A DNA stretch of 64,000 nucleotides, taken from positions 17,412 through 81,411 of the forward strand of contig JAEDNI010000001.1 in NCBI GenBank assembly GCA_016302585.1, written 5' to 3'. The position numbers and the translations under genes are program-made. Below the pieces are notes generated by a model. It made no database searches, was not told the DNA's origin, and was given only the letters and a program-made list of their open reading frames with translations. This document shows, in pieces, positions 9,201-62,251 of this stretch. Every line of letters starts with the position of its first letter. Within the stretch, counting starts at the first letter, position 1. Origin of the DNA: Paludibacteraceae bacterium (lineage in GTDB: Bacteria > Bacteroidota > Bacteroidia > Bacteroidales > Paludibacteraceae).

Positions 9201-9966
9201 GACGGCTTTTGCCGAAGAATGGCAGAAAGACCTGTTTGACCAGCAGATATGCGAGTTAGGCGTCGATACAATAGATCAGAATGATTACTATATCCAGTCA
9301 GATACATGGGAGCGCGTTCAGAAACAGATAGAAACTTTATGCGCTAACAGCACAGGAGCGACGCTAATTGAAGCCGAAGCTTGCGAGGATAAGAACTGGA
9401 ATGAGACATGGGAACTGGACCATCCGATAGAGGAACTGCCGTTAGGCATTCGCATCGTACCCCATTGCGCGTTCGGAGCCGGACATCATGAGACGACAGC
9501 GATGATGATAGAAGCCTTAATGAATTTCAAATGTCAAATTTCAGATTTCAAGTTTAAGGTCCTTGACCATGGTACAGGCACCGGTGTGCTGGCTATCTTC
9601 GCAAAGCGTTTAGGTGCAACGCATGTACTGGCTATCGATATTGATGAGAAGAGTGTGATCAATGCGCAGGAGAACGCAGCGATAAACGGAGAAGAGATAG
9701 AGGTGCGATTAGGAGATCGTATTCCGGAAGACGCAGGTGCTTTCGATTTGATATTAGCCAATATCCATCGGAATATCCTACTGGCGAACATGGCCTTGTA
9801 TGCAGCGCATCTGAAACAAGGCGGACAAGTATGGCTCAGCGGATTCTATGATACAGATTGCGAGGTATTGATTCAAGCTGCAAATGCGAAGGGATTAGCG
9901 CCTATTGCCACGCATGCCAATCATGAATGGCGCATGATACAATTGCAAAAATCAAGCAATAGATAA
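9175..9966 (+). CDS. prmA: Ribosomal protein L11 methyltransferase
   Basis: FGAGHHETT and the SAM-binding VLDHGTGTGVLAI, then DIDEKSV. Overlaps the folC end by 26 nt. Confidence 0.85.
   Translation: MLYHVLHIKTAFAEEWQKDLFDQQICELGVDTIDQNDYYIQSDTWERVQKQIETLCANSTGATLIEAEACEDKNWNETWELDHPIEELPLGIRIVPHCAFGAGHHETTAMMIEALMNFKCQISDFKFKVLDHGTGTGVLAIFAKRLGATHVLAIDIDEKSVINAQENAAINGEEIEVRLGDRIPEDAGAFDLILANIHRNILLANMALYAAHLKQGGQVWLSGFYDTDCEVLIQAANAKGLAPIATHANHEWRMIQLQKSSNR
9523..9557. repeat. Heptamer array (A/G)ATTTCA x5 inside the prmA CDS
   Basis: aatttca aatgtca aatttca gatttca agtttaa. It encodes NFKCQISDFKFK just before the SAM-binding motif. Confidence 0.85.
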
Positions 9967-13409: not shown

Positions 13410-15137
13410 TTAATCAATCTGTAAATCCAATGTTTCTTTCAGTTGTGCGAGTGCAGGATTTTGTTCTGCCATAAGGGCATATTTTTCTTCCGCTGTAAAC
13501 GCCATCTGCTCTTGATTAAACTCCGCCTGAATCAGTTCTATACTCAGGTGCTCGTTATGCAGTTGAGCACGCAATTGACGAAGTAAATTAGGCAGTGCTT
13601 TGCGCATTTCCGCCAATTGCCATGGGTTGGGCAGGACGATTTGCGCTTGTTGTTCACCAATCAGTTGCGGAGCATAAATCTCCATCAACTCTTTCAGACG
13701 CAATTCCTCTTTATGGGCAGCCGCAAGACCAACCCATGCGTCTCTGAGTTGGTCAGCCGTAAAAGGGCGATTAGACTCCTCCTGTGCAGGAGTCTTAGTC
13801 ATTGGTGATTGGTTATTGGTAGTGGATGATTGGTTTTCTTTTGGAGCCTCTTCTTTCTTCGCGCCGAAAGCCAAACCAATCTTCGGCATCTTAGGGATGC
13901 TTGCTGTTGGAACACTTGGTTGACTAGTGGTACTAAGCTGTTCAGCTGGTTTAGCAGGCTCTGCGGGGTTAACAGGCTTTGCAGGATCAGCCGGTCTGGG
14001 TGCTGTTTTGGCTGTCTGTGGCGCCGATTGAGGCACATTTTGTACTACACCGAGTTGGCATAGTTTGATGAGCGCCAGTTCCACCGTTAGGCGTTTATTA
14101 CGCGCTGTGCGATAATTGATATCACAGGTGTTGAGGATATCAAGGGCCTGGAAGATCCAGATAGGGTGACAACGCTTTGCCTGCTCCCCATAGCGCGCAC
14201 GAATAGAGTCTCCTATCTCTAATAACGGGAGAGTTTGCGGGTCTTTGCTGACCAGCACATCACGTAGGTGTTGCGCAAAACCAATCACAAAATGTCCGGC
14301 ATCGAAACCGTTATTGAGTACATCGTTGAAGAGCAACAGCGTGCCCGCCACATCATGCGCCAGCGCTTTATCTACCAGCGAGAAGTAATAGTCGGCATTG
14401 AGTACATTCAGTACGGCTATTGTCTGTTCGTAGGTGATGGTGTTTCCGCAGAAAGCCACTAACTGATCGAAGATAGAGAGTGCGTCGCGCATACCGCCAT
14501 CGGCTTTCTGCGCCACTACGTTCAGCGCCTCTTCACTCACCGCGATACCTTCATTCGCAGCTACTTTCTGCAGGTAGGCGATGGTATCGGGTACGGTGAT
14601 GCGATTGAAATCGTACACTTGACAGCGACTGAGGATAGTAGGCAACACCTTATGTTTCTCAGTGGTAGCGAGAATAAAGATGGCATACGAAGGGGGTTCC
14701 TCCAGCGTCTTCAGCAGTGCGTTGAATGCACCGGCAGAAAGCATATGCACCTCGTCGATGATATAAACAGAGTACTTACCAATCTGCGGCGGGATACGCA
14801 CTTGATCAATGAGCGAACGGATGTCCTCTACCGAGTTGTTAGACGCCGCATCGAGTTCGTGGATGTTAAACGAACGCTGTTCATTAAAGGCCTTGCAACT
14901 CTCGCACTCGTTACATGCATCAAAGCCGTTTTGCGGATTGAGACAGTTGATGGTCTTGGCGAAGATACGGGCGCAGGTGGTCTTACCTACTCCACGCGGA
15001 CCGCAAAACAGGTATGCATGTGCCAGGTGATTTTGGCGAATCGCATTCTGCAGCGTCTGTGTAAGCGCTTGCTGACCCACCACGGACTCAAAGGTCTGCG
15101 GCCTGTACTTTCGCGCTGATACTACATAATTTTCCAT
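13410..15137 (-). CDS. dnaX: DNA polymerase III subunit gamma/tau
   Basis: MENYVVSARKYRPQTFESVVGQ, Walker A GPRGVGKTT, Zn module CNECESC, and a Pro/Ala-rich linker. Confidence 0.95.
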   Translation of the reverse strand: MENYVVSARKYRPQTFESVVGQQALTQTLQNAIRQNHLAHAYLFCGPRGVGKTTCARIFAKTINCLNPQNGFDACNECESCKAFNEQRSFNIHELDAASNNSVEDIRSLIDQVRIPPQIGKYSVYIIDEVHMLSAGAFNALLKTLEEPPSYAIFILATTEKHKVLPTILSRCQVYDFNRITVPDTIAYLQKVAANEGIAVSEEALNVVAQKADGGMRDALSIFDQLVAFCGNTITYEQTIAVLNVLNADYYFSLVDKALAHDVAGTLLLFNDVLNNGFDAGHFVIGFAQHLRDVLVSKDPQTLPLLEIGDSIRARYGEQAKRCHPIWIFQALDILNTCDINYRTARNKRLTVELALIKLCQLGVVQNVPQSAPQTAKTAPRPADPAKPVNPAEPAKPAEQLSTTSQPSVPTASIPKMPKIGLAFGAKKEEAPKENQSSTTNNQSPMTKTPAQEESNRPFTADQLRDAWVGLAAAHKEELRLKELMEIYAPQLIGEQQAQIVLPNPWQLAEMRKALPNLLRQLRAQLHNEHLSIELIQAEFNQEQMAFTAEEKYALMAEQNPALAQLKETLDLQID

Positions 15138-15699
15138 ATGCTATGCTGTATATATATTTCTCTTTTTCAAAGGTCTCGATGTTCGATTCTCGATTATCGA
15201 TTACTGTTTGCAATTGTTCAAACGATTGTATTCCTACTCCCTGTGCTTTGACGATGGCCTCTTTCAGGGTCCATAACCGCGTAAATTCCCTATCGCTTTC
15301 GATTTTTGATTTTTGATTTTTGATTTTTGATTGCTCAAATTTATTCATCGTTCGCGCGAGCAAGTCGTCGTCGGCATGGCGGATCGCTTCTATGTCAATT
15401 CCTATCGGATGCTCATCTATGGCTACGGCGATACCGTGTTTGCAATGACTGATACTGAAATATGGTCCGTTCGGCCAAAAAGGTTTTCCGTACTCGTTAT
15501 AGCACCAATCCTCTAACCCAAAACCCTTATTCTGCAAGCTCTCCGCGAGCATCATCCACGATTTGAGGCAACAGAACTGACCGAAGATATGCTTATAACG
15601 CAAGGCCTGTTCTCGCCGTTGAGTATTGACGAGCGGTAACAGCCTTTGCACCTCTTCGTCTGTACACTCCTCCATCCTATCAAATATCGCGATGTGCAT
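15088..15699 (-). CDS. 4'-phosphopantetheinyl transferase (Sfp-type)
   Basis: GIDIEAIR and WTLKEAIVKAQG motifs. It overlaps the dnaX start by 50 nt and the RND end by 20 nt, and it contains two heptamer arrays. Confidence 0.8.
   Translation of the reverse strand: MHIAIFDRMEECTDEEVQRLLPLVNTQRREQALRYKHIFGQFCCLKSWMMLAESLQNKGFGLEDWCYNEYGKPFWPNGPYFSISHCKHGIAVAIDEHPIGIDIEAIRHADDDLLARTMNKFEQSKIKNQKSKIESDREFTRLWTLKEAIVKAQGVGIQSFEQLQTVIDNRESNIETFEKEKYIYSIAYGKLCSISAKVQAADL
15175..15202. repeat. Heptamer array TCGATNN x4 inside the PPTase CDS
   Basis: tcgatgt tcgattc tcgatta tcgatta. Confidence 0.85.
15301..15332. repeat. Perfect heptamer array GATTTTT x4.5 inside the PPTase CDS
   Basis: gatttttgatttttgatttttgatttttgatt. 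It encodes KIKNQKSKI. Confidence 0.95.
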
Positions 15700-23942: not shown

Positions 23943-24095
23943 TTTTAACAAAAAACAAAAATGTATATATATACAAAGTATATATATAGTAAGAGTTATG
24001 GTTTTGCTAAAAATGGCATTTTATCATATGGCTATCCTGCGCGAATAATACGGTTATCATACGATTTTATAAGTACATTATATGATAAATCATCA

Positions 24096-24440
24096 TTAGT
24101 ATCCACTAATGATTTCCAATCCAAAAATATTGTATATTCTTCCGCATCGGCGAATATAGAGTTGCCCATCCTTAATAAATTTCTCCCCTTTCTCTTGTAA
24201 CCCGTCATCCGTAACTTGTGGCGTATAGGTCATTTTGCAGGCTGCGATAGGTCTGCATTTTGACCCATAAACCTAACTTGTACCCCTTCTGAAGCACTTT
24301 CGCCGAACACAATCGCCCGGTAGTCGTACTTATACATCGGTGTAGCCTCTCCGTCCTTAGCCGCGATAAGGACAACACTATCTCGGGTAAACGAAAAAAA
24401 ACAGTAATTTCGGATTCCGTCTTCCTTGCAGGAATTCCCC
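24096..24440 (-). pseudogene. Frameshifted remnant of a secreted-protein gene (C-terminal part only)
   Basis: Two adjacent minus-strand frames read ...AAKDGEATPMYKYDYRAIVFGESASEGVQVRFMGQNADLSQPAK* and MTYTPQVTDDGLQEKGEKFIKDGQLYIRRCGRIYNIFGLEIISGY*. The second carries the same C-terminal tail motif as the genes at 2215 and 22819. There is no start or signal peptide upstream, and an in-frame TAG lies at about 24445. Confidence 0.35.
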
Positions 24441-24533
24441 AGACCTTGGGTTCGCTAAGTATAGCGAACGAAAATCTTTTAAGCCTCAAAATACGCTCGT
24501 GCAAGCACAGACGATAATTTTTTGCTTAAAATC

Positions 24534-24564
24534 TTGCATATTCAAATTTTTTGTAGTATTTTTG
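24534..24564 (+). promoter_or_regulatory. Promoter (-33 TTG / -7 TATTTTTG) for the small lipoprotein ORF
   Basis: cTTGcatattcaaattttttgtagTATTTTTGtag, 25 nt upstream of the ATG at 24589. Confidence 0.6.
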
Positions 24565-24588
24565 TAGCGAATTTTAAACACTACCGTT

Positions 24589-24783
24589 ATGAGAACAAAA
24601 ATTTTCTTTGCATTTGCGATTCTTTTCTCAACTTTCATTCTGGTTTCATGCTCCAATCCGAAAGCTCCGAACACGGATGGTTTCCCTGCTCCCGATCCAG
24701 CCGTTCATTTCGACACTCCGGACGATAATAACCTTTACAAAGGAGACAACAGCAGTTTCTCCGACTACTACGAGAAAGACTAA
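24589..24783 (+). CDS. Small lipoprotein (64 aa), hypothetical
   Basis: MRTKIFFAFAILFSTFILVSC lipobox, an acidic Pro/Asp-rich mature part, and its own promoter. Confidence 0.55.
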   Translation: MRTKIFFAFAILFSTFILVSCSNPKAPNTDGFPAPDPAVHFDTPDDNNLYKGDNSSFSDYYEKD

Positions 24784-24865
24784 TCTTTAATTTACCATAA
24801 CGAAGAAACTCCTACCATCAACGTAGTAGAAGAAGCATGAAACGCCTCTTCATTGCTTGCGTGAA

Positions 24866-24985
24866 GCGATTGAAGCTGAAAGCGATTGAAGCTGAAAGCG
24901 ATTGAAGCTGAAAGCGATTGAAGCTGAAAGCGATTGAGGCTGAAAGCGATTGAGGCTGAAAGCGATTGAGGCTGAAAGCGATTGC
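24866..24985. repeat. 16-bp tandem array, 7.5 copies
   Basis: GCGATTGAAGCTGAAA x4, then GCGATTGAGGCTGAAA x3, then a partial copy. Intergenic. Confidence 0.95.
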
Positions 24986-25391
24986 AAAGAGTGGAGAGCC
25001 AAAAGGCGAGAGTCGAGAGTTATTGGCTATGCCAATAGTTGTAGAGGAATTGGGGATTGATGGAACGACATTCCATTCGGATACGATGATTGCGTCGGTT
25101 GGATTTGACCACCTCATTGGATGTGAACGTACTGGCCGACGTAGATGCGAACCTATACGACGCCCGGAGAATAGACATCAACTCGAGCGCGATGCGGAGT
25201 AAGATAAAAGAGAACCTGAGCGACGCGAGCAGCTGTGGCTGGTGCCGAACAAACGAGCGGAGCGGAAGAGAACGATCCGAGTGTAGCCGATAAGGTGCAG
25301 CATGCCGTTCGTAAGACCTTCATCACGAAGCGTGTAGTGAACCGGGTCGCGCAGGAACATGAGTGAAAACGACAAAAAAAAAGAATAGACT

Positions 25392-40472: not shown

Positions 40473-40570
40473 ATTTCGATCACGAGGATGGATTTGACTG
40501 CTTGCAACCTCGTTAAAACAATGCTAAAACTTGTGCCGCAAGCTTAAACAGTCGCTTGTGGTTATTTTTT
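40473..40570 (+). promoter_or_regulatory. Structured metK leader, a candidate SAM-responsive riboswitch (SAM-II-like pseudoknot plus terminator)
   Basis: P1 pairs 40482-40487 (acgagg) with 40508-40513 (cctcgt). Loop GCUUGC (40500-40505) is complementary to GCAAGC (40538-40543), which is also the left arm of a terminator hairpin. GAUUU, GCUU and AAGCUUAAA strings are reminiscent of SAM-II. Confidence 0.45.
40536..40570 (+). terminator. Leader (attenuator) terminator upstream of metK
   Basis: An 8-bp stem, CCGCAAGC / GCUUGUGG, with a 10-nt loop followed by UUAUUUUUU. It lies 19 nt before the metK ATG. Confidence 0.6.
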
Positions 40571-48234: not shown

Positions 48235-49455
48235 ATGGATATGAAAAAAATTACATTATTAATCTGCATTCTGTGTTCTGTATTCTGTGCTCCGATACAA
48301 GCGCAGACAGACACGACGGAAGTGAAGAAAGATACCATCGAAGGATGGAAGTTCACGACGATAGACAGCGTGGGTATCACGCGTGTGAAGGACCAGAACC
48401 GAAGTGGTACGTGTTGGGCGTTCTCTACGCTGGGATTCTTAGAGAGCGAAGTGCTACGAATCAAAGGCAAAGAGGTTGAACTCAGCCCGATGTTTGTTGT
48501 AAGCAAAACGCTGATTGATCGTGCCACGTACACCGTACGTATGTATAATGAGCCGCGTTTTGCAGAAGGAGGTTCGGCCTATGATGTGATCTACTGCATG
48601 GAGCACTACGGATTAGTACCAAAAGCTGTGATGCCCGGTATTCGCTATGGCTGGACAGAAGCGGATACGCTGCCTGTTTTCAGCGAGCTAAGTGCTGTAG
48701 CCGAAGGTTATCTGAACGGGCTGAAGAAACAGAAGAAGTTAAGTCCTGTTTGGCGCGAAGGCCTGCAAGCTATCTACGATACCTATCTGGGTCCCTGCCC
48801 TACGGAGTTTGAGTACGAAGGTAAAACGTACACCCCACTTACCTACGTCGAAAGTCTAGGATTAGTAGCTTCGAACTACGTTTCGCTTACGAGCTACACC
48901 CATCATCCGTTCTACGAGAAGTTTGCACTCGAAGTGCCGGATAACTGGCGCATGGATCAGATGTATAATGTGCCGATCGATGAGTTGATGGCTGTGATCG
49001 ATAACGCTTTAGCGAAGGGCTACACGCTGGCATGGGCGGCCGATGTATCGGAGATTGGTTTCACGCGCAAAGGAATCGGTGTGGTGCCTGATGCAGACAA
49101 AGGCGCAGACCTCACCGGAAGTGACATGGCGAAATGGGTGGGTTACACGGCCGATAAGAAGAAAGAGGAGTTGACCAAACATCCGCTGCCTGAGAAAGAG
49201 ATCACCCAGCAAATGCGTCAAGATGCCTTTGACAACTGGGAGAACACCGACGATCATGGCATGCAGATCTTCGGCGTAGCCAAAGACCAGAACGGTAAAC
49301 GCTATTACATGGTGAAGAACAGTTGGGGCACCTTACGTTCGGATTTCGGCGGTATTTGGTATATCAGCGAAGCGTATATGCGCTATAAGACGAACGATAT
49401 CCTGGTGCACAAAGACGCTATTCCTAAAGACCTGCGCAAAAAGCTTGGTCTTTAG
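48235..49455 (+). CDS. C1-family cysteine peptidase (aminopeptidase C / bleomycin hydrolase-like), secreted
   Basis: Active-site QNRSGTCWAFS, signal peptide MKKITLLICILCSVFCAPIQA, and C-terminal HGMQI...NSWG. Confidence 0.85.
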   Translation: MDMKKITLLICILCSVFCAPIQAQTDTTEVKKDTIEGWKFTTIDSVGITRVKDQNRSGTCWAFSTLGFLESEVLRIKGKEVELSPMFVVSKTLIDRATYTVRMYNEPRFAEGGSAYDVIYCMEHYGLVPKAVMPGIRYGWTEADTLPVFSELSAVAEGYLNGLKKQKKLSPVWREGLQAIYDTYLGPCPTEFEYEGKTYTPLTYVESLGLVASNYVSLTSYTHHPFYEKFALEVPDNWRMDQMYNVPIDELMAVIDNALAKGYTLAWAADVSEIGFTRKGIGVVPDADKGADLTGSDMAKWVGYTADKKKEELTKHPLPEKEITQQMRQDAFDNWENTDDHGMQIFGVAKDQNGKRYYMVKNSWGTLRSDFGGIWYISEAYMRYKTNDILVHKDAIPKDLRKKLGL

Positions 49456-49490
49456 ATTGGTTATTGATAATTGGTCATTAGTAATTGATG
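49456..49490 (+). repeat. Heptamer array ATTGGTN x5 filling the pepC-like / yigZ-like junction
   Basis: ATTGGTT ATTGATA ATTGGTC ATTAGTA ATTGATG. It begins 1 nt after the TAG stop, and its last three nt are the downstream ATG. Confidence 0.9.
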
Positions 49491-49841
49491 GCAGCAGAAG
49501 GAATCTATAAAGACCGCGGAAGTAAGTTCTTGGGGTTCGCCGAAGCGATCCAAGACGAGGAACAAGCCAAAGCGCGTATCGCCTGGTATAAGAAGAAATA
49601 CCACGATGCACGGCATGTATGCTATGCCTATCGTTTGGGCCCGAACCTATGGCGCACCAAGGATGATGGAGAGCCGCATGGAACGGCCGGAGCACCTATC
49701 TTGCGCTCGATCGATGCACGCGGGTTGGATAATATTTTAGTGGTCGTGGTGCGCTATTTCGGCGGCACGCTGTTAGGTACAGGAGGACTAATGGTCGCCT
49801 ATCGAGAAGCCTCTAAAGCAGCATTGGAAAACTATGGATAA
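49488..49841 (+). CDS. YigZ/IMPACT-family N-terminal domain protein (short form)
   Basis: HVCYAYRLG...DDGEPHGTAGAPIL...VVVRYFGGTLLGTGGL. Only 117 aa, with no C-terminal DUF1949-like domain. Confidence 0.6.
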   Translation: MAAEGIYKDRGSKFLGFAEAIQDEEQAKARIAWYKKKYHDARHVCYAYRLGPNLWRTKDDGEPHGTAGAPILRSIDARGLDNILVVVVRYFGGTLLGTGGLMVAYREASKAALENYG

Positions 49842-55940: not shown

Positions 55941-56870
55941 TTAAGAATCGGAAACTTTTTCTTGCTTTTGGCATACAAATAAACCGAATATGATTAACCC
56001 CATACCTATCCACTTACCGATCGGCAGGTGTTCGCCGAAGAATAAAAACATCCATAAGGCCGTGAAGGCAGGACGGATATTATTGAAGGCATTGGCTTGC
56101 GTTACACCGATCTTTCGAAGCGCATAGCAGAAGAGGATAAATGCAATCACAGACGCAAAAATGGTCAGATACGCCACGCACCCGAGTGCTATTTGCGTAT
56201 CAAAATTTGAAATCTGGAATCTTAAATCTAAAATCGTTGAAGGTCCTTCGCGCCACAACCAAATCGGAATGAAATACATCAAACTGATCAGTTGGGTGTA
56301 GAACACGAACGAAAGCGCACTGTATTTCTGAGGCGCCTTGCGCATCATAATAGAATCTACCACAGCCGCTGAAACAGCTGCAAAAGCCATGAGAATTCCC
56401 CAGTAGTTACCTATCGAATAATTGGTTGTACCTATGAGCGTCAAAGCGAACACGCCGCCCGTTGAGATCAAAATTCCGAGAATATTGTACTTCGTCACGC
56501 GTTCGCGCAACAGAATGCCCGCAAAGATAGGACTCAGCAGCGGCGAAGTCGAGAGCAGCGTCTCGGCGATCGTCGGGCTGTTCAACGCATCAAACGTAAA
56601 AGTCTCCAATAAATAATACAAAAACGGCTGACACGTACCCGCAAGAAGAAACAGCGGCAGGTCCTTCAGGTCCATCTTCTGCAAACAGAACAAACTGTGT
56701 TTCCTACAGACAAGGCCAATAATAAACATCAGCAACACAGACGGCACAAACCGAAGCACGATCATCGTAAACGGCGGCAGAACGGTCAAAGCTTGTTTGA
56801 TAGCTATACCGCTCACCGACCAGCTCAACATCGATACCAAAAGAGCTACTATAGGAAGGGATTTCTGCAT
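55941..56870 (-). CDS. EamA/DMT family transporter
   Basis: 309 aa, 10 TM segments in two halves. A heptamer array lies in the central loop. Confidence 0.8.
   Translation of the reverse strand: MQKSLPIVALLVSMLSWSVSGIAIKQALTVLPPFTMIVLRFVPSVLLMFIIGLVCRKHSLFCLQKMDLKDLPLFLLAGTCQPFLYYLLETFTFDALNSPTIAETLLSTSPLLSPIFAGILLRERVTKYNILGILISTGGVFALTLIGTTNYSIGNYWGILMAFAAVSAAVVDSIMMRKAPQKYSALSFVFYTQLISLMYFIPIWLWREGPSTILDLRFQISNFDTQIALGCVAYLTIFASVIAFILFCYALRKIGVTQANAFNNIRPAFTALWMFLFFGEHLPIGKWIGMGLIIFGLFVCQKQEKVSDS
56203..56237. repeat. Heptamer array AAATCTN x5 inside the EamA CDS
   Basis: aaatttg aaatctg gaatctt aaatcta aaatcgt. It encodes LDLRFQISNFD in the inter-domain loop. Confidence 0.85.
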
Positions 56871-56875
56871 TTAAA

Positions 56876-57760
56876 TTAGAGCGAGCTTGGCCACGTATTG
56901 TTTTCTATTCCCGCTAAACGACATATCGTTGCGTGTGTCTCTTTCAATAAACGTTCGGTCTCTACGGCACGAGGTTTCGTAGTATCCGGATAGATAGGTG
57001 CCCCGATAACAACCTGCGTCAAGGGTTCATCCTTCGGTCCAAACAGACGCCATATTCCTGTCCGCTCGCGATAGGTAACTGCGAACGGAATGATAGGTTT
57101 GTTGTACTTATATGCCATCGTAAACGCACCTTTCTGGAACGGACGAAGCGGTTTATACCAATCCCAGCGCTTAGCCTCGGGGAAGATATGAAACCAATAA
57201 CCCTCTTTGTCATACGCATCGAACGCCGCATTAAAGGCTTTCATTGCACTCAAACCCGCTTCGGCGGAAGGAATAGGTATTCCGCCTACAATACGCAGAT
57301 AGAACTGGTCCTTGGTGCGGAAATTCGGTGCAAACATCGGTATACGCGTGCGCGGCGAAGCATGAAAAGTGGTCAATACAGAGGCGCAGTCATGGCGGTA
57401 ACAGTGGTTCGCGATGGTGATCGCACCGCGTGAAAGGTCGAACTGCTTCAGCCATCGACGAACACCACAGGACGAACGACGCCATTTTGTCTCGCCCTCA
57501 ATACGCCAGCGCAACCCGTATCTAATGCGCAAAATCCATCCCAAGATACGCAGCACAAAGCTATAGCCATACCACACGCGCAGCCTGTTACGCCAAGACG
57601 GATCATAATACGGATAGGTAGCATCTACCGGCAGATACTCCCGATCATAAACCGGCTTATACAAACCTACATACGGGTCGTCCTCCGGATAACTCATCGT
57701 CACGGGCGGTACATACGTACCTTCCGTCACTTTCAAATCAGTATATCGCTTATTTTCCAT
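56876..57760 (-). CDS. Lysophospholipid acyltransferase family protein
   Basis: HX4D motif ANHCYRHD and FPEAKRW. Confidence 0.7.
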   Translation of the reverse strand: MENKRYTDLKVTEGTYVPPVTMSYPEDDPYVGLYKPVYDREYLPVDATYPYYDPSWRNRLRVWYGYSFVLRILGWILRIRYGLRWRIEGETKWRRSSCGVRRWLKQFDLSRGAITIANHCYRHDCASVLTTFHASPRTRIPMFAPNFRTKDQFYLRIVGGIPIPSAEAGLSAMKAFNAAFDAYDKEGYWFHIFPEAKRWDWYKPLRPFQKGAFTMAYKYNKPIIPFAVTYRERTGIWRLFGPKDEPLTQVVIGAPIYPDTTKPRAVETERLLKETHATICRLAGIENNTWPSSL

Positions 57761-57803
57761 TCACCAATCACCAATTACCAATTACCAATCACCATTCACC
57801 AAT
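57755..57803 (-). repeat. Heptamer array ATTGGTN x7 (minus-strand reading) spanning the HAD stop and the acyltransferase start
   Basis: The + strand reads ttccatt caccaat caccaat taccaat taccaat caccatt caccaat. It encodes the HAD C-terminus LLVNGDW*, then a 21-nt spacer, then the next ATG. Confidence 0.9.
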
Positions 57804-58405
57804 AAAAACTTCGCTCCTACACTTCGCGCTGCAGCTCCGTCTTTCTCATCGCGGTCGCCCACAAACAATGTCGTCTCAGCCTCCGCTCCCATCAATTCCA
57901 ATACGCGGCGCGCGCAGTACTCCGAAGGCTTCAACGAACCCATTTCGGGAGCGGAAACCAGCAGTTCAAACTGACTCGGATCAACATGCAGCACTTCCAG
58001 TTTCTCTACCACACAGCCGTAATCCGAGAAGATGGCCATCTTGATGCCTCTTTCCTTGCACTCGGAAATAAGGTCCATCACTTCATGGCGAATCGGCTGA
58101 CGCTTGGCGATCAGACGAATCATTGCCGGCATATACACCAGTTCGTACCATTTAGCGGCTATCTTCGCATTCCACCAGTGGCCGCGAGCCATCATATGAA
58201 AGAAACAGTCATAAAACTCCTCTCCCGTCGCAAACTGCAGATAGTGCATGTTACGACGCGCCAGACGTTCGGACGTCAAAAGAGGCAGACACCAAAAGAG
58301 ACGTCTCACCATTCTACGCGCTAAGCCGCGTTTGTCATATAATGTACCATCAAGATCGAGAACGACGCTCTTGACGCCGTTTAGCACGTGCTTTTTGTCT
58401 GTCAT
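57782..58405 (-). CDS. HAD family hydrolase
   Basis: VVLDLDGTLY (motif I) and VGDRDEKDG (motif IV). Confidence 0.8.
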   Translation of the reverse strand: MTDKKHVLNGVKSVVLDLDGTLYDKRGLARRMVRRLFWCLPLLTSERLARRNMHYLQFATGEEFYDCFFHMMARGHWWNAKIAAKWYELVYMPAMIRLIAKRQPIRHEVMDLISECKERGIKMAIFSDYGCVVEKLEVLHVDPSQFELLVSAPEMGSLKPSEYCARRVLELMGAEAETTLFVGDRDEKDGAAARSVGAKFLLVNGDW

Positions 58406-60194
58406 CGATTTTATTTGCTCTTTCTATAACGAGCTCGCTAATGCGTTCGAAACTATCCTCCAAGCGTTGCAACATATTAAATTTCGTCCGACGTTTCTCG
58501 TCCTGCATCAGCAGGTTAAACTTAAACTGACCATCGCGGAATCCGTCCTTCAGACACGCTGCCTTGAAGCGCGCATAGGCGTTCGAAAGCAAGATATGGG
58601 TCTCCGGTTCATGTAAGCGATAGGACTGCCGTTTACTCTCATACTCGAGGTTGATATGTTGCAGTTTCTCGTCCACCACTTTCGTAAACGCCTCGGCCTG
58701 TTCCTGACGAATCTTCTCGTTCTCAAACTCGTAGTAGAAGTGGTATTTCGACTCCTCCACATCCGCAAAGCCCACGAAGAACTTCGTCTTGATGCCCGTC
58801 TCCTCTTCCGCCTGATGCACAGCGTTCATGAACTGCAGTTCATACAGTTTCTCGCCTGTCATGGAGACAATACCATTCACTTTCGACACCATATGAACCG
58901 TAGGCGTATTCTTGTACCTTCCGCCCACCTCCACCAGGTCATTCATGTTATAGCGGTACAGACCCGAATAGGTCGTCACATACGCGCAGTAGCGTTTGCC
59001 CAACTCCAATTCATCGATCTGAAGGAAGTGTTTACGGGGACTGTCTAACTCGCTCTCCTCAACAAACTCATAGTAATGGAACTGCGGGAAGAGCACACTC
59101 TCATTCGTATCATCCAGCGAGAAGCCGAAACGGCACTCCGTCGCAATATATCCCAACTCCTGATAGAAGGTCTTATCCCAGTCAAACTGGTCCATGTACT
59201 TATCCATGTAGATCTTCGTGTTACCGCATTTCCACGTACTGAGGTATTGCAACCAAGGCCAGAAATCCTTCGGATACATATGTCCCGTCTCCTCGAGAAT
59301 CTTACGCAACTCTGCGGCACGTTCCGGTTTGGGTGAGATATACTGGTCTAACTCCGCACGAATCTCAAACGGAATATCGAAGTTCTCGCTGATACCGCCT
59401 GTCTCGATATCATGAAGCATCTCCTCAAGGTTCTCATTCATCACGCGCAGCAACTCCAATATCGTCGAGGGGTTGGCTGTGGCCCATAGCGTCACATCTC
59501 GATGCTGAAGCGCCAAACGCATCAAGGTATAGTTACGTGCACCATAATCCGGAATGGACATCACGGCCGCTGGACCCGTATAATGCTTCTTGATAATAGA
59601 CGGAATATCGCGAACCAACACACCACTCACCGAGCCATACAAGGTACCGTCAGGAGCATAACCTTCGCATTCCTTGCCTACCGTCGTGAAGATATGACCG
59701 CCAAAGATGCGGCTGCGGTGCTTAACAAAGTTCCACGTCCAGATATGACTCATCTTGCCGTACACATCCTTCAGGTACTTATGGGTCATCGGAATCCATT
59801 TCGGTTCACTCGTCGTACCCGATGTGGTAGCATACATATCCGGTTTACCCGGAAACAGCACATTCTCTTCGCCGTTCTTATGACGCTCCACATACGGACG
59901 CAAGGTCTCAAAACTATTGTTTACCGGCACATACAAGCGATACAGACGGAACAAATCCTCCGCCGTCGTAGCACTTAAGATACGATCAAAATGGTGCTCC
60001 TTGCCATACACGGTATCACGCGAAATAGTCAGAATGTCACGCAGCGTCTTCTCCGCCGTGTGACGCGGCTTACGGCTCCAGAAGCGCAAACGGACAGTCT
60101 GAGAACCGCCTACCAACCAAAGCATGAAATTAATTAACCAGGGATAAGGTAAGGCTCTGCCTTCCTGGTCAACATAGGGTTTTATCTTTGCCAT
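58350..60194 (-). CDS. GH3 (auxin-responsive promoter) family adenylating enzyme homologue
   Basis: About 614 aa. ATTSGTTSEPKWIP is an AMP-forming motif typical of the GH3 family. Basic C-terminal tail. I prefer the start at MAKIKPYV (60194) over 60233. Confidence 0.7.
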   Translation of the reverse strand: MAKIKPYVDQEGRALPYPWLINFMLWLVGGSQTVRLRFWSRKPRHTAEKTLRDILTISRDTVYGKEHHFDRILSATTAEDLFRLYRLYVPVNNSFETLRPYVERHKNGEENVLFPGKPDMYATTSGTTSEPKWIPMTHKYLKDVYGKMSHIWTWNFVKHRSRIFGGHIFTTVGKECEGYAPDGTLYGSVSGVLVRDIPSIIKKHYTGPAAVMSIPDYGARNYTLMRLALQHRDVTLWATANPSTILELLRVMNENLEEMLHDIETGGISENFDIPFEIRAELDQYISPKPERAAELRKILEETGHMYPKDFWPWLQYLSTWKCGNTKIYMDKYMDQFDWDKTFYQELGYIATECRFGFSLDDTNESVLFPQFHYYEFVEESELDSPRKHFLQIDELELGKRYCAYVTTYSGLYRYNMNDLVEVGGRYKNTPTVHMVSKVNGIVSMTGEKLYELQFMNAVHQAEEETGIKTKFFVGFADVEESKYHFYYEFENEKIRQEQAEAFTKVVDEKLQHINLEYESKRQSYRLHEPETHILLSNAYARFKAACLKDGFRDGQFKFNLLMQDEKRRTKFNMLQRLEDSFERISELVIERANKIDDRQKARAKRRQERRSRS

Positions 60195-60202
60195 ACGTCT
60201 TG

Positions 60203-60904
60203 TTATTTCTCTATTGTATAAGCGTAGTTGCATACGCGGATGAACGCCTCATACCCGCCGCGCACCTTGCGATACATACGCGTGATACGCCAGGCGTTCT
60301 GCGCATAAGGAACGACCGATCCGTATTTAGTCACCGCTTCCCAGTTAATCTCCGACTCCACATTCGATTCTGTCTCGTAATTACGCATCAGCAACTCGTC
60401 GTTATAATACATCTCGATGGAACTGATATGTACTGCGGATACATTGTCATATGCATACGTGCTCTTTACGGTATAGCCGAAGAACTGTTTCTTAGAAGCT
60501 ATCACATCCACCGATGCATTCTCCACATGCGCCTCTGTCACATCGTCGTTCTGCATGGAGGTAGAAGTAAGCAACGCCTTACACTCCACATCACATTGAC
60601 CCAACAAGTTGATGCGCGCCATGGCATTCGCTTGCGCTTCAGCTTCTTCTAAAGACGGACAAACCGACGAAATGCCTTCGCCGATAATATATTTATGCGA
60701 TAGCTCCCCCTCCGCATCGTATTGCACGTTCATCGTCTGCTCTATCTGCTCCGCCATAGGTTGAGCATCGGGAAAAGCACGCCAACCCTCACGGGACAAA
60801 CGCATGGCTTCCTTACGAACCGCCCTACTCACCGCCTGAACTTGAACCGACACGCCCAACAGGCATACCATCGCTATTCCAATTATAAGTCTATTTGTCT
60901 TCAT
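60203..60904 (-). CDS. Secreted hypothetical protein (233 aa)
   Basis: Signal peptide MKTNRLIIGIAMVCLLGVSVQVQA. I recognise no family. It is preceded by a repeat-filled leader. Confidence 0.55.
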   Translation of the reverse strand: MKTNRLIIGIAMVCLLGVSVQVQAVSRAVRKEAMRLSREGWRAFPDAQPMAEQIEQTMNVQYDAEGELSHKYIIGEGISSVCPSLEEAEAQANAMARINLLGQCDVECKALLTSTSMQNDDVTEAHVENASVDVIASKKQFFGYTVKSTYAYDNVSAVHISSIEMYYNDELLMRNYETESNVESEINWEAVTKYGSVVPYAQNAWRITRMYRKVRGGYEAFIRVCNYAYTIEK

Positions 60905-60996
60905 ATTTAAAGTCTATTTGTCTTCCAATTAAAAGTCTATTTGTCTTCCAATTAAAAGTCTATTTGTCTTCCAATTAAAAGTCTATTTGTTTTCAT
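60885..60996 (-). repeat. 23-bp tandem array, about 5 copies; copy 1 contains the gene's start codon
   Basis: + strand units begin at 60885, 60908, 60931, 60954 and 60977, reading (a/t)aAAGTCTATTTGT(c/t)TTC(cat/cca)ATT. Confidence 0.95.
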
Positions 60997-61108
60997 AGGC
61001 TCAAAAATTCGTTTGCTTACATAGGCTCAAAATTCGTTTGTTTGCATAGGCTCAAAATTCGTTTGCTTGCATAGGCTCAAAATTCGTTTGTTTGCATAGG
61101 CCCATACC
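60994..61108 (-). repeat. 25/26-bp tandem array, 4.5 copies
   Basis: CATAGGCTCAAAA(A)TTCGTTTG(c/t)TT(a/g), with units at 60994, 61020, 61045 and 61070 plus a partial at 61095. Confidence 0.95.
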
Positions 61109-61130
61109 TACGCAAATTACAATTTGCGTG

Positions 61131-61162
61131 CAAAGGTACTAAAAAAAAATGAAATACACAAG
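61131..61162 (-). promoter_or_regulatory. Promoter (-33 TTG / -7 TACCTTTG) upstream of the repeat leader
   Basis: The minus strand reads CTTGtgtatttcatttttttttagTACCTTTGcacgcaaatt. Confidence 0.65.
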
Positions 61163-61208
61163 AATTTATCCTTAAAAAAAATTCAACTTGCAATCCCCGT
61201 TGGACAAA

Positions 61209-61263
61209 TAGTAGGTGATTAGTAGGTGATTAGTAGGTGATTAGTAGGTGATTAGTAGGTTAT
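61209..61263. repeat. 11-bp tandem array x5
   Basis: TAGTAGGTGAT x4 plus TAGTAGGTTAT, located 47-100 bp upstream of the -33 element. Confidence 0.95.
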
Positions 61264-61315
61264 AATCGGTATCAAAGGCAAACCATCTTATTACGTCCAT
61301 ATTCCGTATATACAC

Positions 61316-61346
61316 AAAAAACAGCCACCGAAGTGACTGTTTTTTA
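61316..61346 (-). terminator. Intrinsic terminator of the lipoprotein gene
   Basis: aaaaaACAGCCACcgaaGTGACTGTttttt, with one mismatch. It has a T-run on both strands. Confidence 0.7.
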
Positions 61347-61366
61347 TCAAATCCGCTATTCTGGAA

Positions 61367-62251
61367 TTACTTCAAGGAAGCACGCTTTTTTGCAGATTCC
61401 TTTAAAGCTGCTTTCTTAACAACACGCTTCGGAGCAAAAGCAGCAGCTTCGCCACCTTCTTCTGCAATAGTAGCAGTAGCATTGAAAGTGTACTCAACAC
61501 CATTATCACCAACTACAGAACCACTGAAAGCATACTCAGTACCCTCTTTATTGAGTGCACCATCCAAGTTCATTTTCTCAAGAGTTGTCCAATCATCATC
61601 ACCTTCTCCCCATTCTACGTAGTTATAAACATATTTACCATCGCTGTAGAAAGCTTCCTCGGTGAATGTACCACTTGCTTGCTCAGCGTAGAAGCAGAGT
61701 TTAAGTGCATAACCATCTTGTGCTTCAGCCGAGATACCCATGAGACCATAATCCTTCATAAGAGAGAGATCTACCGTAGCAGAAGTAATGTTCAAAGCAA
61801 CAGTTTCTTCAATTTCCAACTTCGGAGTGGTGAATTCCTTGATACCTACTTCACCAATAACTGTGTAAGTGGAATCCAGATAGATAGCAACAACAGCTAA
61901 TTCAGTCTCGGAAGGAAGTTCTGAGAAAGAATAATTAACCTCACCTTGACTCATAACATAAGCAGCAACCACATCCCAATCATAAGAACCACATTCCTGT
62001 TTCAAGTCCTCTGCTATATAATAGCCCAGAGAATCACCTGCTTCCTTAATACTCTCTGCGTAATATACAGTCCAGTAATAATAAGCAGCGGTGTCAGTCG
62101 GAGTAACAGTAATATCAGCACTTGTTGCTGTGATGTTCTCAACGAGAATAGCGAACTTACCGTCCTTTCCAGGAGTCGGGTTGTTTCCGTTGCAAGATGC
62201 AAAGCTGAACGCTACCAGCGCTACAGCCAGAATCGAAAAAATCTTTTTCAT
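61367..62251 (-). CDS. Surface lipoprotein, hypothetical, with a Lys-rich C-terminal tail
   Basis: Lipobox VAFSFASCNGN. Acidic body and tail KRVVKKAALKESAKKRASLK. It is AT-richer than its neighbours and A/T-ending codons dominate. Confidence 0.6.
   Translation of the reverse strand: MKKIFSILAVALVAFSFASCNGNNPTPGKDGKFAILVENITATSADITVTPTDTAAYYYWTVYYAESIKEAGDSLGYYIAEDLKQECGSYDWDVVAAYVMSQGEVNYSFSELPSETELAVVAIYLDSTYTVIGEVGIKEFTTPKLEIEETVALNITSATVDLSLMKDYGLMGISAEAQDGYALKLCFYAEQASGTFTEEAFYSDGKYVYNYVEWGEGDDDWTTLEKMNLDGALNKEGTEYAFSGSVVGDNGVEYTFNATATIAEEGGEAAAFAPKRVVKKAALKESAKKRASLK

Follow-up and report, generated by a model that had tools for sequence, protein, structure and literature searches.

In a window of 64,000 nucleotides (nt) from a Paludibacteraceae bacterium (GenBank assembly GCA_016302585.1, contig JAEDNI010000001.1, positions 17,412 to 81,411 of the forward strand; "the window" below means this whole stretch), an array of seven ATTGGTN heptamers at 57755..57803 on the minus strand fills the junction between the genes for a HAD-superfamily hydrolase and an acyltransferase. 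The same site carries 2, 5, 6, 7 or 22 units across five independent assemblies whose flanks are 95-99% identical, and on this comparison of assembled sequences the array is prone to slippage and its copy number is polymorphic between related genomes. We consider it likely that the array is a heptanucleotide simple sequence repeat (SSR), that is, a variable-number tandem repeat (VNTR) resembling those known as long SSRs (LSSRs) and short tandemly repeated repetitive (STRR) sequences, which is resized by slippage or unequal exchange from a local seed and persists since it is harmless where it lies.

Direct reading of the minus strand from 57803 to 57755 gives ATTGGTG AATGGTG ATTGGTA ATTGGTA ATTGGTG ATTGGTG AATGGAA, and Tandem Repeats Finder (TRF) reports a repeat at 57757-57803 (period 7, 6.7 copies, 87% matches, score 66). 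According to a preliminary description of this DNA, these seven units take in the end of the HAD gene with its TAA, then 21 nt of spacer, then the next ATG, and the sequence agrees. The open reading frame (ORF) of the HAD gene (57782..58405, minus strand, 207 amino acids; Pfam PF00702 at 6e-16 and PF13419 at 8e-11) ends in TTA TTG GTG AAT GGT GAT TGG TAA, encoding LLVNGDW before the stop: the last seven codons and the TAA lie inside the array, the first of these codons beginning 2 nt ahead of it. The spacer itself (57761..57781, minus strand, TTGGTAATTGGTGATTGGTGA, by direct reading) is made of array units only, and the final TGA of the array directly adjoins the ATG (57760-57758) of the acyltransferase gene (56876..57760, minus strand, 294 amino acids, PlsC/LPLAT-type; Pfam PF01553 at 3e-8), which thus falls within the last, degenerate unit AATGGAA. 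Altogether the seven units hold six T(G/A)A triplets at 7-nt spacing, with every reading frame shut twice.

The preliminary description had raised the possibility that the unit number changes by slippage, which is borne out by the allele series. Compared to the window allele with its seven units and 21-nt gap, a metagenome contig (L130, flanks 98.8-99.2% identical) carries 22 units and a gap of 126 nt, with a duplicated three-unit block of 21 nt within the array; L021 (genome G041, flanks 96.6% identical) carries six units and a gap of 14 nt, and in both the HAD protein ends in LLVNGDW as in the window. The allele L129 (flanks 95.9% identical) has five units, a gap of 7 nt and the tail LLVNGNW, while L022 (genome G042, flanks 94.9% identical) has two units, which do not form an array, an 11-nt overlap and the tail LLVNGK: here the sequence reads ...TTTTT ATTGGTG AATGGAAAATAA, with the HAD stop falling 11 nt into the acyltransferase ORF. 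Stop-to-start distances across the alleles are therefore -11, 7, 14, 21 and 126 nt, and copy number already differs at about 1% divergence. The overlap of the L022 type, ATGGAAAATAA, is also present in L041 (79% amino acid identity) together with a different upstream sequence, which indicates that the 11-nt overlap and the two-unit state are probably ancestral.

In order to see what such changes do to the two genes, single-unit gain and loss were simulated on the window allele: in 12 out of 12 cases the HAD protein kept its 207 amino acids with at most two residues changed, and the spacer alone shifted, by 7 nt in either direction. It had been expected from the preliminary description that gain or loss of a unit would alter the HAD C-terminus or stop as well as the stop-to-start distance; the distance does move in 7-nt steps, but the C-terminus and stop are buffered. 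The reason for this lies in the unit: with a TGA or TAA in every unit and a unit length that is not divisible by 3, all frames are shut after three units, so that the HAD protein ends no more than three units into the array and copy number has next to no influence on its length and tail.

The junction was then surveyed in relatives. A search with the acyltransferase yielded 76 loci with orthologues of 44-96% identity, all 76 from uncultured rumen or gut Bacteroidales metagenome-assembled genomes (MAGs), many labelled Paludibacteraceae, and 63 species exhibit a recognisable HAD-acyltransferase junction. Stop and start overlap (as ATGA or ATGGAAAATAA) in at least 14 of these 63 species; the spacer is shorter than 12 nt in 10 and reaches 12 nt or more in 39. 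Judged by eye, about 30 of the 39 longer spacers are tandem arrays with a period of 7, 8 or 10, and their units are unrelated between species: AGGTTAA (seven copies), GAATTGA, AAATTGA, AAATTGT, TTTATAA, TCAACTAG, TACCGTAA, GACAACCTAG and GACCAAY. In 16 species the spacer opens with a copy (at most one mismatch) of the last 7-8 nt of the species' own HAD gene including the stop, a result obtained with 3% of shuffled spacers. Relatives at 61-71% identity show overlaps or very short gaps, and hence the junction arrays are derived, with repeated independent origin. Insertion of a cassette in these relatives was also considered and rejected: the loci at first scored as having "no upstream ORF" are stop/start overlaps or contain a run of N. 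As a separate observation, the spacers of L036 and L052 (L036:2501, L052:2501) belong to a 10-nt unit family with the palindrome CCTAGG (GACAACCTAG / TAGGTAGTCC), and 10-mers of this type also flank several genes of the host genome (G000:C51:2970-3040; flanks of G000:C12:6403-8841), including a PF05635-like gene.

The host genome is a rumen Paludibacteraceae MAG of 1.63 Mb in 68 contigs (48% G+C, about 91% completeness), in which we performed a census of period-7 arrays at a TRF score of at least 40, using an order-3 Markov simulation of the genome as null: 225 arrays were found compared to 0 in the simulated sequence, corresponding to 13.8 per 100 kb, and at a score of at least 30 the number is 361-381. 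Exact runs of two or more ATTGGTN units occur 62 times, and the heptamer ATTGGTG occurs 377 times compared to a median of 184.5 for permutations of the same composition, about 280 of its copies being isolated. Genus relatives contain 8.5 period-7 arrays per 100 kb (417 kb from 74 relatives, HAD/acyltransferase junction excluded) and other Bacteroidales 0.9 per 100 kb (330 kb, 19 families), the host genome being about 15 times denser than the latter. Of 301 genomes sampled from the order, 19 (the host genome among them) contain four-unit ATTGGTN runs, with 52 hits in the host genome and no more than 14 in every other one; a reversed-sequence control pattern turns up in about 20 genomes and is similarly frequent outside the host genome. 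Given this sporadic occurrence and the behaviour of the control, ATTGGTN was rejected as a motif conserved across the order: heptamer arrays are sporadic in Bacteroidales, with the host lineage exceptionally rich in them. Periods 8, 10 and 11 are raised as well, with 34, 23 and 63 arrays. The period-11 arrays are unusually common at the same score threshold, 33 of the 63 being intergenic; one example is TAGTAGGTGAT in 4.7 copies at 61209-61260 of the window.

Placement of the arrays was assessed with a simple longest-ORF gene model (1380 ORFs, 91.5% coding), which is approximate and not curated. Under this model 60 of the 225 arrays are wholly intergenic, 69 lie over a stop codon, 15 over a start codon and 88 within ORFs; 137 touch intergenic DNA or gene ends, even though non-coding DNA makes up 8.5% of the genome. 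Period-7 arrays are present at 98 of 998 co-directional, 17 of 161 convergent and 14 of 153 divergent junctions, about 10% of each kind. Two thirds of the co-directional arrays (66/98) overlap or abut the upstream stop, and 77 of the 98 contain a stop triplet on the sense strand. When stop-anchoring was defined strictly, as a stop-containing terminal unit of the gene followed by at least two further copies with at most one mismatch each, 16 period-7 arrays were anchored compared to 0.05 expected from shuffled spacers; this test was substituted for a looser one (one extra copy, periods 5-6 included), for which the shuffled control was too high. The sense strand has more G than C in 45 of 59 arrays abutting a stop only, because their units contain the stop codon, and no G/C bias is apparent in arrays abutting a start only (7 vs 11). 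A rule of polarity towards start codons (A/C-rich before starts) was hence rejected, with only the bias after stops left standing. The enrichment at gene junctions for which the preliminary description had suggested a test is thus seen in the genome-wide count, where the family recurs at junctions well above expectation, and the three outcomes that it had named as speaking against its proposal are all contradicted: copy number varies, the arrays are placed non-randomly and their frequency is above chance.

Arrays inside ORFs run in the stop-free orientation, within plainly real housekeeping proteins such as Glu-tRNA synthetase (gltX), MiaB, RlmN, MurF, TsaB, IspD and DnaX. Across the genome 75 ORFs, many of them clearly for housekeeping functions, carry in-frame heptamer arrays, which give rise to inserts with a periodicity of seven residues such as NHQSPIT (from CACCAAT), KSKVESR and LSTLNSQ. 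The window contains one such case, an ATTGGTN array overlooked in the preliminary description (13801..13834, plus strand; TRF and direct reading): its minus-strand reading is in frame with dnaX (13410-15137) and gives ...NQSSTTNNQSPMT..., a part of the low-complexity linker in DNA polymerase III tau/gamma, and the array is missing from G041 and G042, two relatives of 95% identity.

These two genomes are syntenic across the window, with 4.4% (G041) and 5.0% (G042) substitutions, and were used to follow the turnover of its other arrays. The remaining ATTGGTN-type array (ATTGGTT ATTGATA ATTGGTC ATTAGTA ATTG; 49456..49487, plus strand; TRF and direct reading) exactly occupies the gap between the TAG (49453-49455) of the ORF 48235-49455 and the ATG (49488) of the ORF 49488-49841. 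It had been noted in the preliminary description as lying in the opposite orientation; the array is real and does lie on the other strand of the window, but relative to its own genes it has the same orientation as the junction array. Its unit number is the same in G041, whilst in G042 it is mostly missing. Arrays at 15174, 15297 and 30499 are unaltered in copy number at about 5% divergence. In two further cases it is the unit that has changed: the prmA array (9523-9555) has the unit AAATTTC in the window and TTCAGTN in close relatives at about 5% divergence, and the array in the gene for the EamA transporter (56202-56235) has AAATCTN in the window and AAATTGT in G042, both at about the same length and place. 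Retention of the period while the unit sequence is swapped speaks against sequence-specific recognition and for a mutational process of period 7 in which units are born, homogenised and lost.

The following course of events would account for the junction array. To judge from the relatives, the HAD stop originally overlapped the acyltransferase start by 11 nt (...TTA TTG GTG AATG GAA AATAA, containing the acyltransferase ATG and the HAD TAA), with a single ATTGGTG seed; this seed would then have been duplicated in tandem, until there were three stop-carrying units, which, as sequence and simulation show, shut all three frames. From there on gain or loss of further units would be nearly neutral; copy number does drift, as in the alleles with 5, 6, 7 and 22 units and 96-99% identical flanks, and any alteration of acyltransferase translation would be a by-product. 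A 7-nt duplication within a gene would shift its frame, whereas one spanning the stop would spare the upstream protein and add spacer only; stop-free arrays may last in tolerant protein loops where their net length preserves the frame. The same process would act throughout the genome and the genus, with arrays surviving only in junctions, often anchored on the upstream stop, or in such tolerant loops. Loss of mismatch repair was rejected as the cause, given that MutS, MutS2 and MutL are present and uninterrupted. The MutS protein of E. coli recognises loops of 1-4 nt, a range that 7-nt loops exceed. For the heptamer excess as such, slippage has been proposed, with 7 nt corresponding to the stretch of DNA that the replicative polymerase contacts (Mrazek 2007, as related in PMC4679880 and PMC4692102).

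Several observations weigh against this account of local seeding and harmless persistence. The two-unit state of L022 could be a complete contraction rather than the ancestral layout; furthermore, the copy numbers derive from short-read assemblies, and the length of the 154-nt allele may be inexact. The 225 arrays fall into 70 unit families of very uneven size (ATTGGTG/CACCAAT with 37 arrays; about 135 in the top 11 families), and arrays of the same family are clustered within 3 kb, with 12 adjacent pairs compared to 4.95 +/- 2.2 expected. Neither the unevenness nor the clustering is predicted by pure local seeding; both suggest expansion rates that differ between units, copying from array to array, or selection on what the units contain. 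The first of these, or copying among neighbouring arrays, is the likely addition to local seeding. Finally, 59 of the 98 arrays at co-directional junctions have their end no more than 10 nt from the start codon that follows, which a role in translation would predict likewise. Such a role could lie in tunable translational coupling, with the junction as a contingency-type locus in which slippage would set the distance from the HAD stop to the acyltransferase start and hence the efficiency of re-initiation in a Bacteroidales operon lacking Shine-Dalgarno sequences. The span from 2 to 22 units between strains, with gaps from -11 to 126 nt, is in keeping with this, as are the position of the last TGA right beside the ATG, the start-proximal context that stays constant while the distance changes, and the finding that heptamer copy number grades hmw1A expression in H. 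influenzae (PMC8262952, PMC12721329). Nevertheless, we judge it unlikely: arrays are as frequent at convergent junctions, which have no downstream start (17/161 vs 98/998), and orthologous junctions have overlaps, non-repeat spacers or unrelated units. The genes concerned are housekeeping or lipid-metabolism genes instead of surface antigens, the junction array having no surface, antigen or restriction-modification association and the genes at or invaded by arrays elsewhere in the genome being such as dnaX, gltX, miaB, rlmN and murF. In addition, with several window arrays unaltered in copy number at 5% divergence, the rates resemble those of an ordinary variable-number repeat and not of a fast switch. 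Tuning of the coupling is thus a possible side effect, less likely to be the purpose of the array than a tolerated by-product.

That a regulator (S1, a cold-shock or a CsrA-like protein, for example) would bind ATTGGTN repeats in RNA or DNA, as proposed for the TAACTGA repeats, appears very improbable. It is true that one family dominates the genome (62 exact runs, 37 TRF arrays), that ATTGGTN recurs sporadically among the sampled genomes of the order (19/301, host included) and that the position just upstream of starts matches that described in PMC4679880. However, the genome contains 70 different unit families, the same junction holds unrelated units in different species and units are replaced within 5% divergence; the ATTGGTN family itself occurs in both orientations and within ORFs, and some 20 genomes of the order also have the reversed control pattern. 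An origin of the arrays as footprints or ends of mobile cassettes, or through a dedicated copying activity, possibly linked to genes for PF05635 "23S rRNA IVS proteins", would explain the local clustering of same-family arrays and the dominance of few families. All four PF05635-like genes of the host genome (G000:C38:11754-12217, G000:C51:2970-3697, G000:C62:712-1427 and G000:C12:2335-2676) have short-period arrays (7, 8, 10 or 16) near their ends, three of the four at both ends, and in L036 and L052 the spacer of the HAD/acyltransferase junction consists of the CCTAGG-type 10-mers that also stand beside one of the four. Against this, arrays lie at both ends of 7.4% of all genes and at one end or more of 39%, which makes the PF05635 association only modestly significant. 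None of the 75 relatives has a gene inserted at the junction, and neither an inverted array arm nor an inserted PF05635 gene was found there in the window or these relatives. Moreover, the ATTGGTG seed of the array-less allele belongs to the HAD coding sequence, units in many species copy their own stop-containing gene end, and the isolated ATTGGTG copies offer ample local seeds, so that we regard this origin as improbable. An artefact of MAG assembly is extremely unlikely: although the source is a short-read MAG and assemblers can collapse or expand tandem repeats, five assemblies, obtained independently in different studies, have the array at this same site between coherent flanks, the 49-nt array is shorter than a read, and hundreds of similar arrays occur in about 75 independent assemblies of the genus. 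A bolder proposal, to which we give little credence, is that the arrays could constitute an evolvable module of three-frame stop and adjustable spacer that would set the strength of re-initiation at a downstream gene in bacteria not relying on Shine-Dalgarno sites, and would so tune operon stoichiometry at about 10% of junctions, or, in a variant, that they might be written by a dedicated activity, perhaps linked to PF05635; if true, such writing or copying would account for the few dominant families and the local clustering.

The junction offers a clean natural series of alleles at a single site, from the overlap to 5, 6, 7 and 22 units, and a replicated natural experiment, in which about 60 species would have rebuilt the same junction, each from its own stop-containing gene end. 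Survival of the array would be explained by a stop triplet in a unit that is not a multiple of three, which shields the upstream protein at any copy number. The locus could serve as a test bed for the effect of spacing on re-initiation in Bacteroidota lacking Shine-Dalgarno sequences, and for the question of why a 7-nt slippage unit is favoured. In practical terms, such arrays will mislead gene callers (starts, stops, fused ORFs) and add peptides with a seven-residue period to housekeeping proteins in rumen MAGs.

As for the surroundings of the junction, a GH3-family (acyl-adenylate-forming) gene lies upstream of the HAD gene (58350..60233, minus strand; Pfam PF03321 at 1e-64) and heads a string of minus-strand genes assigned by Pfam: GH3, HAD, acyltransferase, EamA and a steroid-reductase-like gene. 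The RNA fold of 57730-57830 showed no significant structure (z = -1.44), on which basis a role of RNA folding, or of a start codon hidden by it, was rejected for the junction, and no Rfam family, promoter or terminator was found at the junction. The sole Rfam match in the window is a SAM-II riboswitch aptamer at 40478-40537 on the plus strand (RF01726, 61.8 bits compared to a gathering score of 44). Synteny is broken at 24091-25228, where about 1.1 kb in the window correspond to about 8.8 kb in G041 and G042; the segment holds a near-perfect array of a 16-nt unit in 7.6 copies (24864-24984) and a period-7 array (24988-25020). Three adjacent arrays (23 nt in 5.1 copies, 25 nt in 4.6 copies and 11 nt in 4.7 copies) lie at 60877-61260 and are unaligned to G041 or G042 (alignment gap at 60905-62189 of the window).

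Comparison with known systems places the array with the heptanucleotide LSSRs (units of 5-11 nt), as it shows head-to-tail units, above-chance frequency and polymorphism in copy number. That bacteria have 7-nt tandem repeats in excess has been known since 2007 (Mrazek, Guo & Shah 2007 PNAS, as summarised in PMC4679880 and PMC4692102), and the LSSRs described there share with the present arrays tandem 7-nt units far longer than chance, a scattered and mostly non-coding distribution and a richness specific to certain lineages. On the other hand, the rumen Paludibacteraceae lineage of the host is not among the LSSR-rich taxa listed, and the host genome stands out in its 13.8 arrays per 100 kb, its many unit families, the frequent anchoring on stops and the many in-frame arrays in housekeeping proteins in spite of 7 not being a multiple of 3. 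Among the cyanobacterial STRR heptamers, one family from Calothrix is reportedly TTGGTCA, a rotation of ATTGGTC. The STRR heptamers (Calothrix PCC 7601; cited in PMC4692102) resemble the present arrays in being dispersed tandem families found about 100 times per genome; they belong to a different phylum and are described as intergenic markers, and not as stop-anchored fillers of junctions or in-frame inserts.

Closer in position are the TAACTGA direct repeats of marine Beggiatoaceae, cyanobacteria and five Bacteroidetes including Paludibacter propionicigenes (MacGregor 2015, PMC4679880): like the array here they are intergenic, forward, directly upstream of a start and often over the upstream stop, they provide stops in three frames and they occur where Shine-Dalgarno sites are few. 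Nevertheless, the unit here is ATTGGT(G/A) and not TAACTGA, and many unrelated units take the same role in the present lineage, with the unit at one junction varying by species, which speaks against one regulator specific to a given sequence and against a single motif spreading horizontally. The GGGAATC / GGGGAYT heptamers of Xanthomonas and Nostoc (Rehm et al. 2015, PMC4692102) likewise form genome-wide arrays, about 90% of them intergenic and nearer to the end of the upstream ORF, with extensive variation in length among close relatives; their units, however, are G-rich and form G-quadruplexes, whereas ATTGGTN has no G-runs and no significant structure. In case of hmw1A/hmw2A of H. influenzae (PMC8262952, PMC12721329, PMC2424069), a slippage-variable heptamer array also lies upstream of a coding region, and its copy number has been demonstrated to grade expression: this is a single adhesin contingency locus with the array in the promoter/5' untranslated region, as opposed to the hundreds of arrays at housekeeping genes described here. 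Heptamer arrays of this sort are thus already known, and the junction in the window is another instance of them, to which an allele series and an account of survival at gene ends can now be added.

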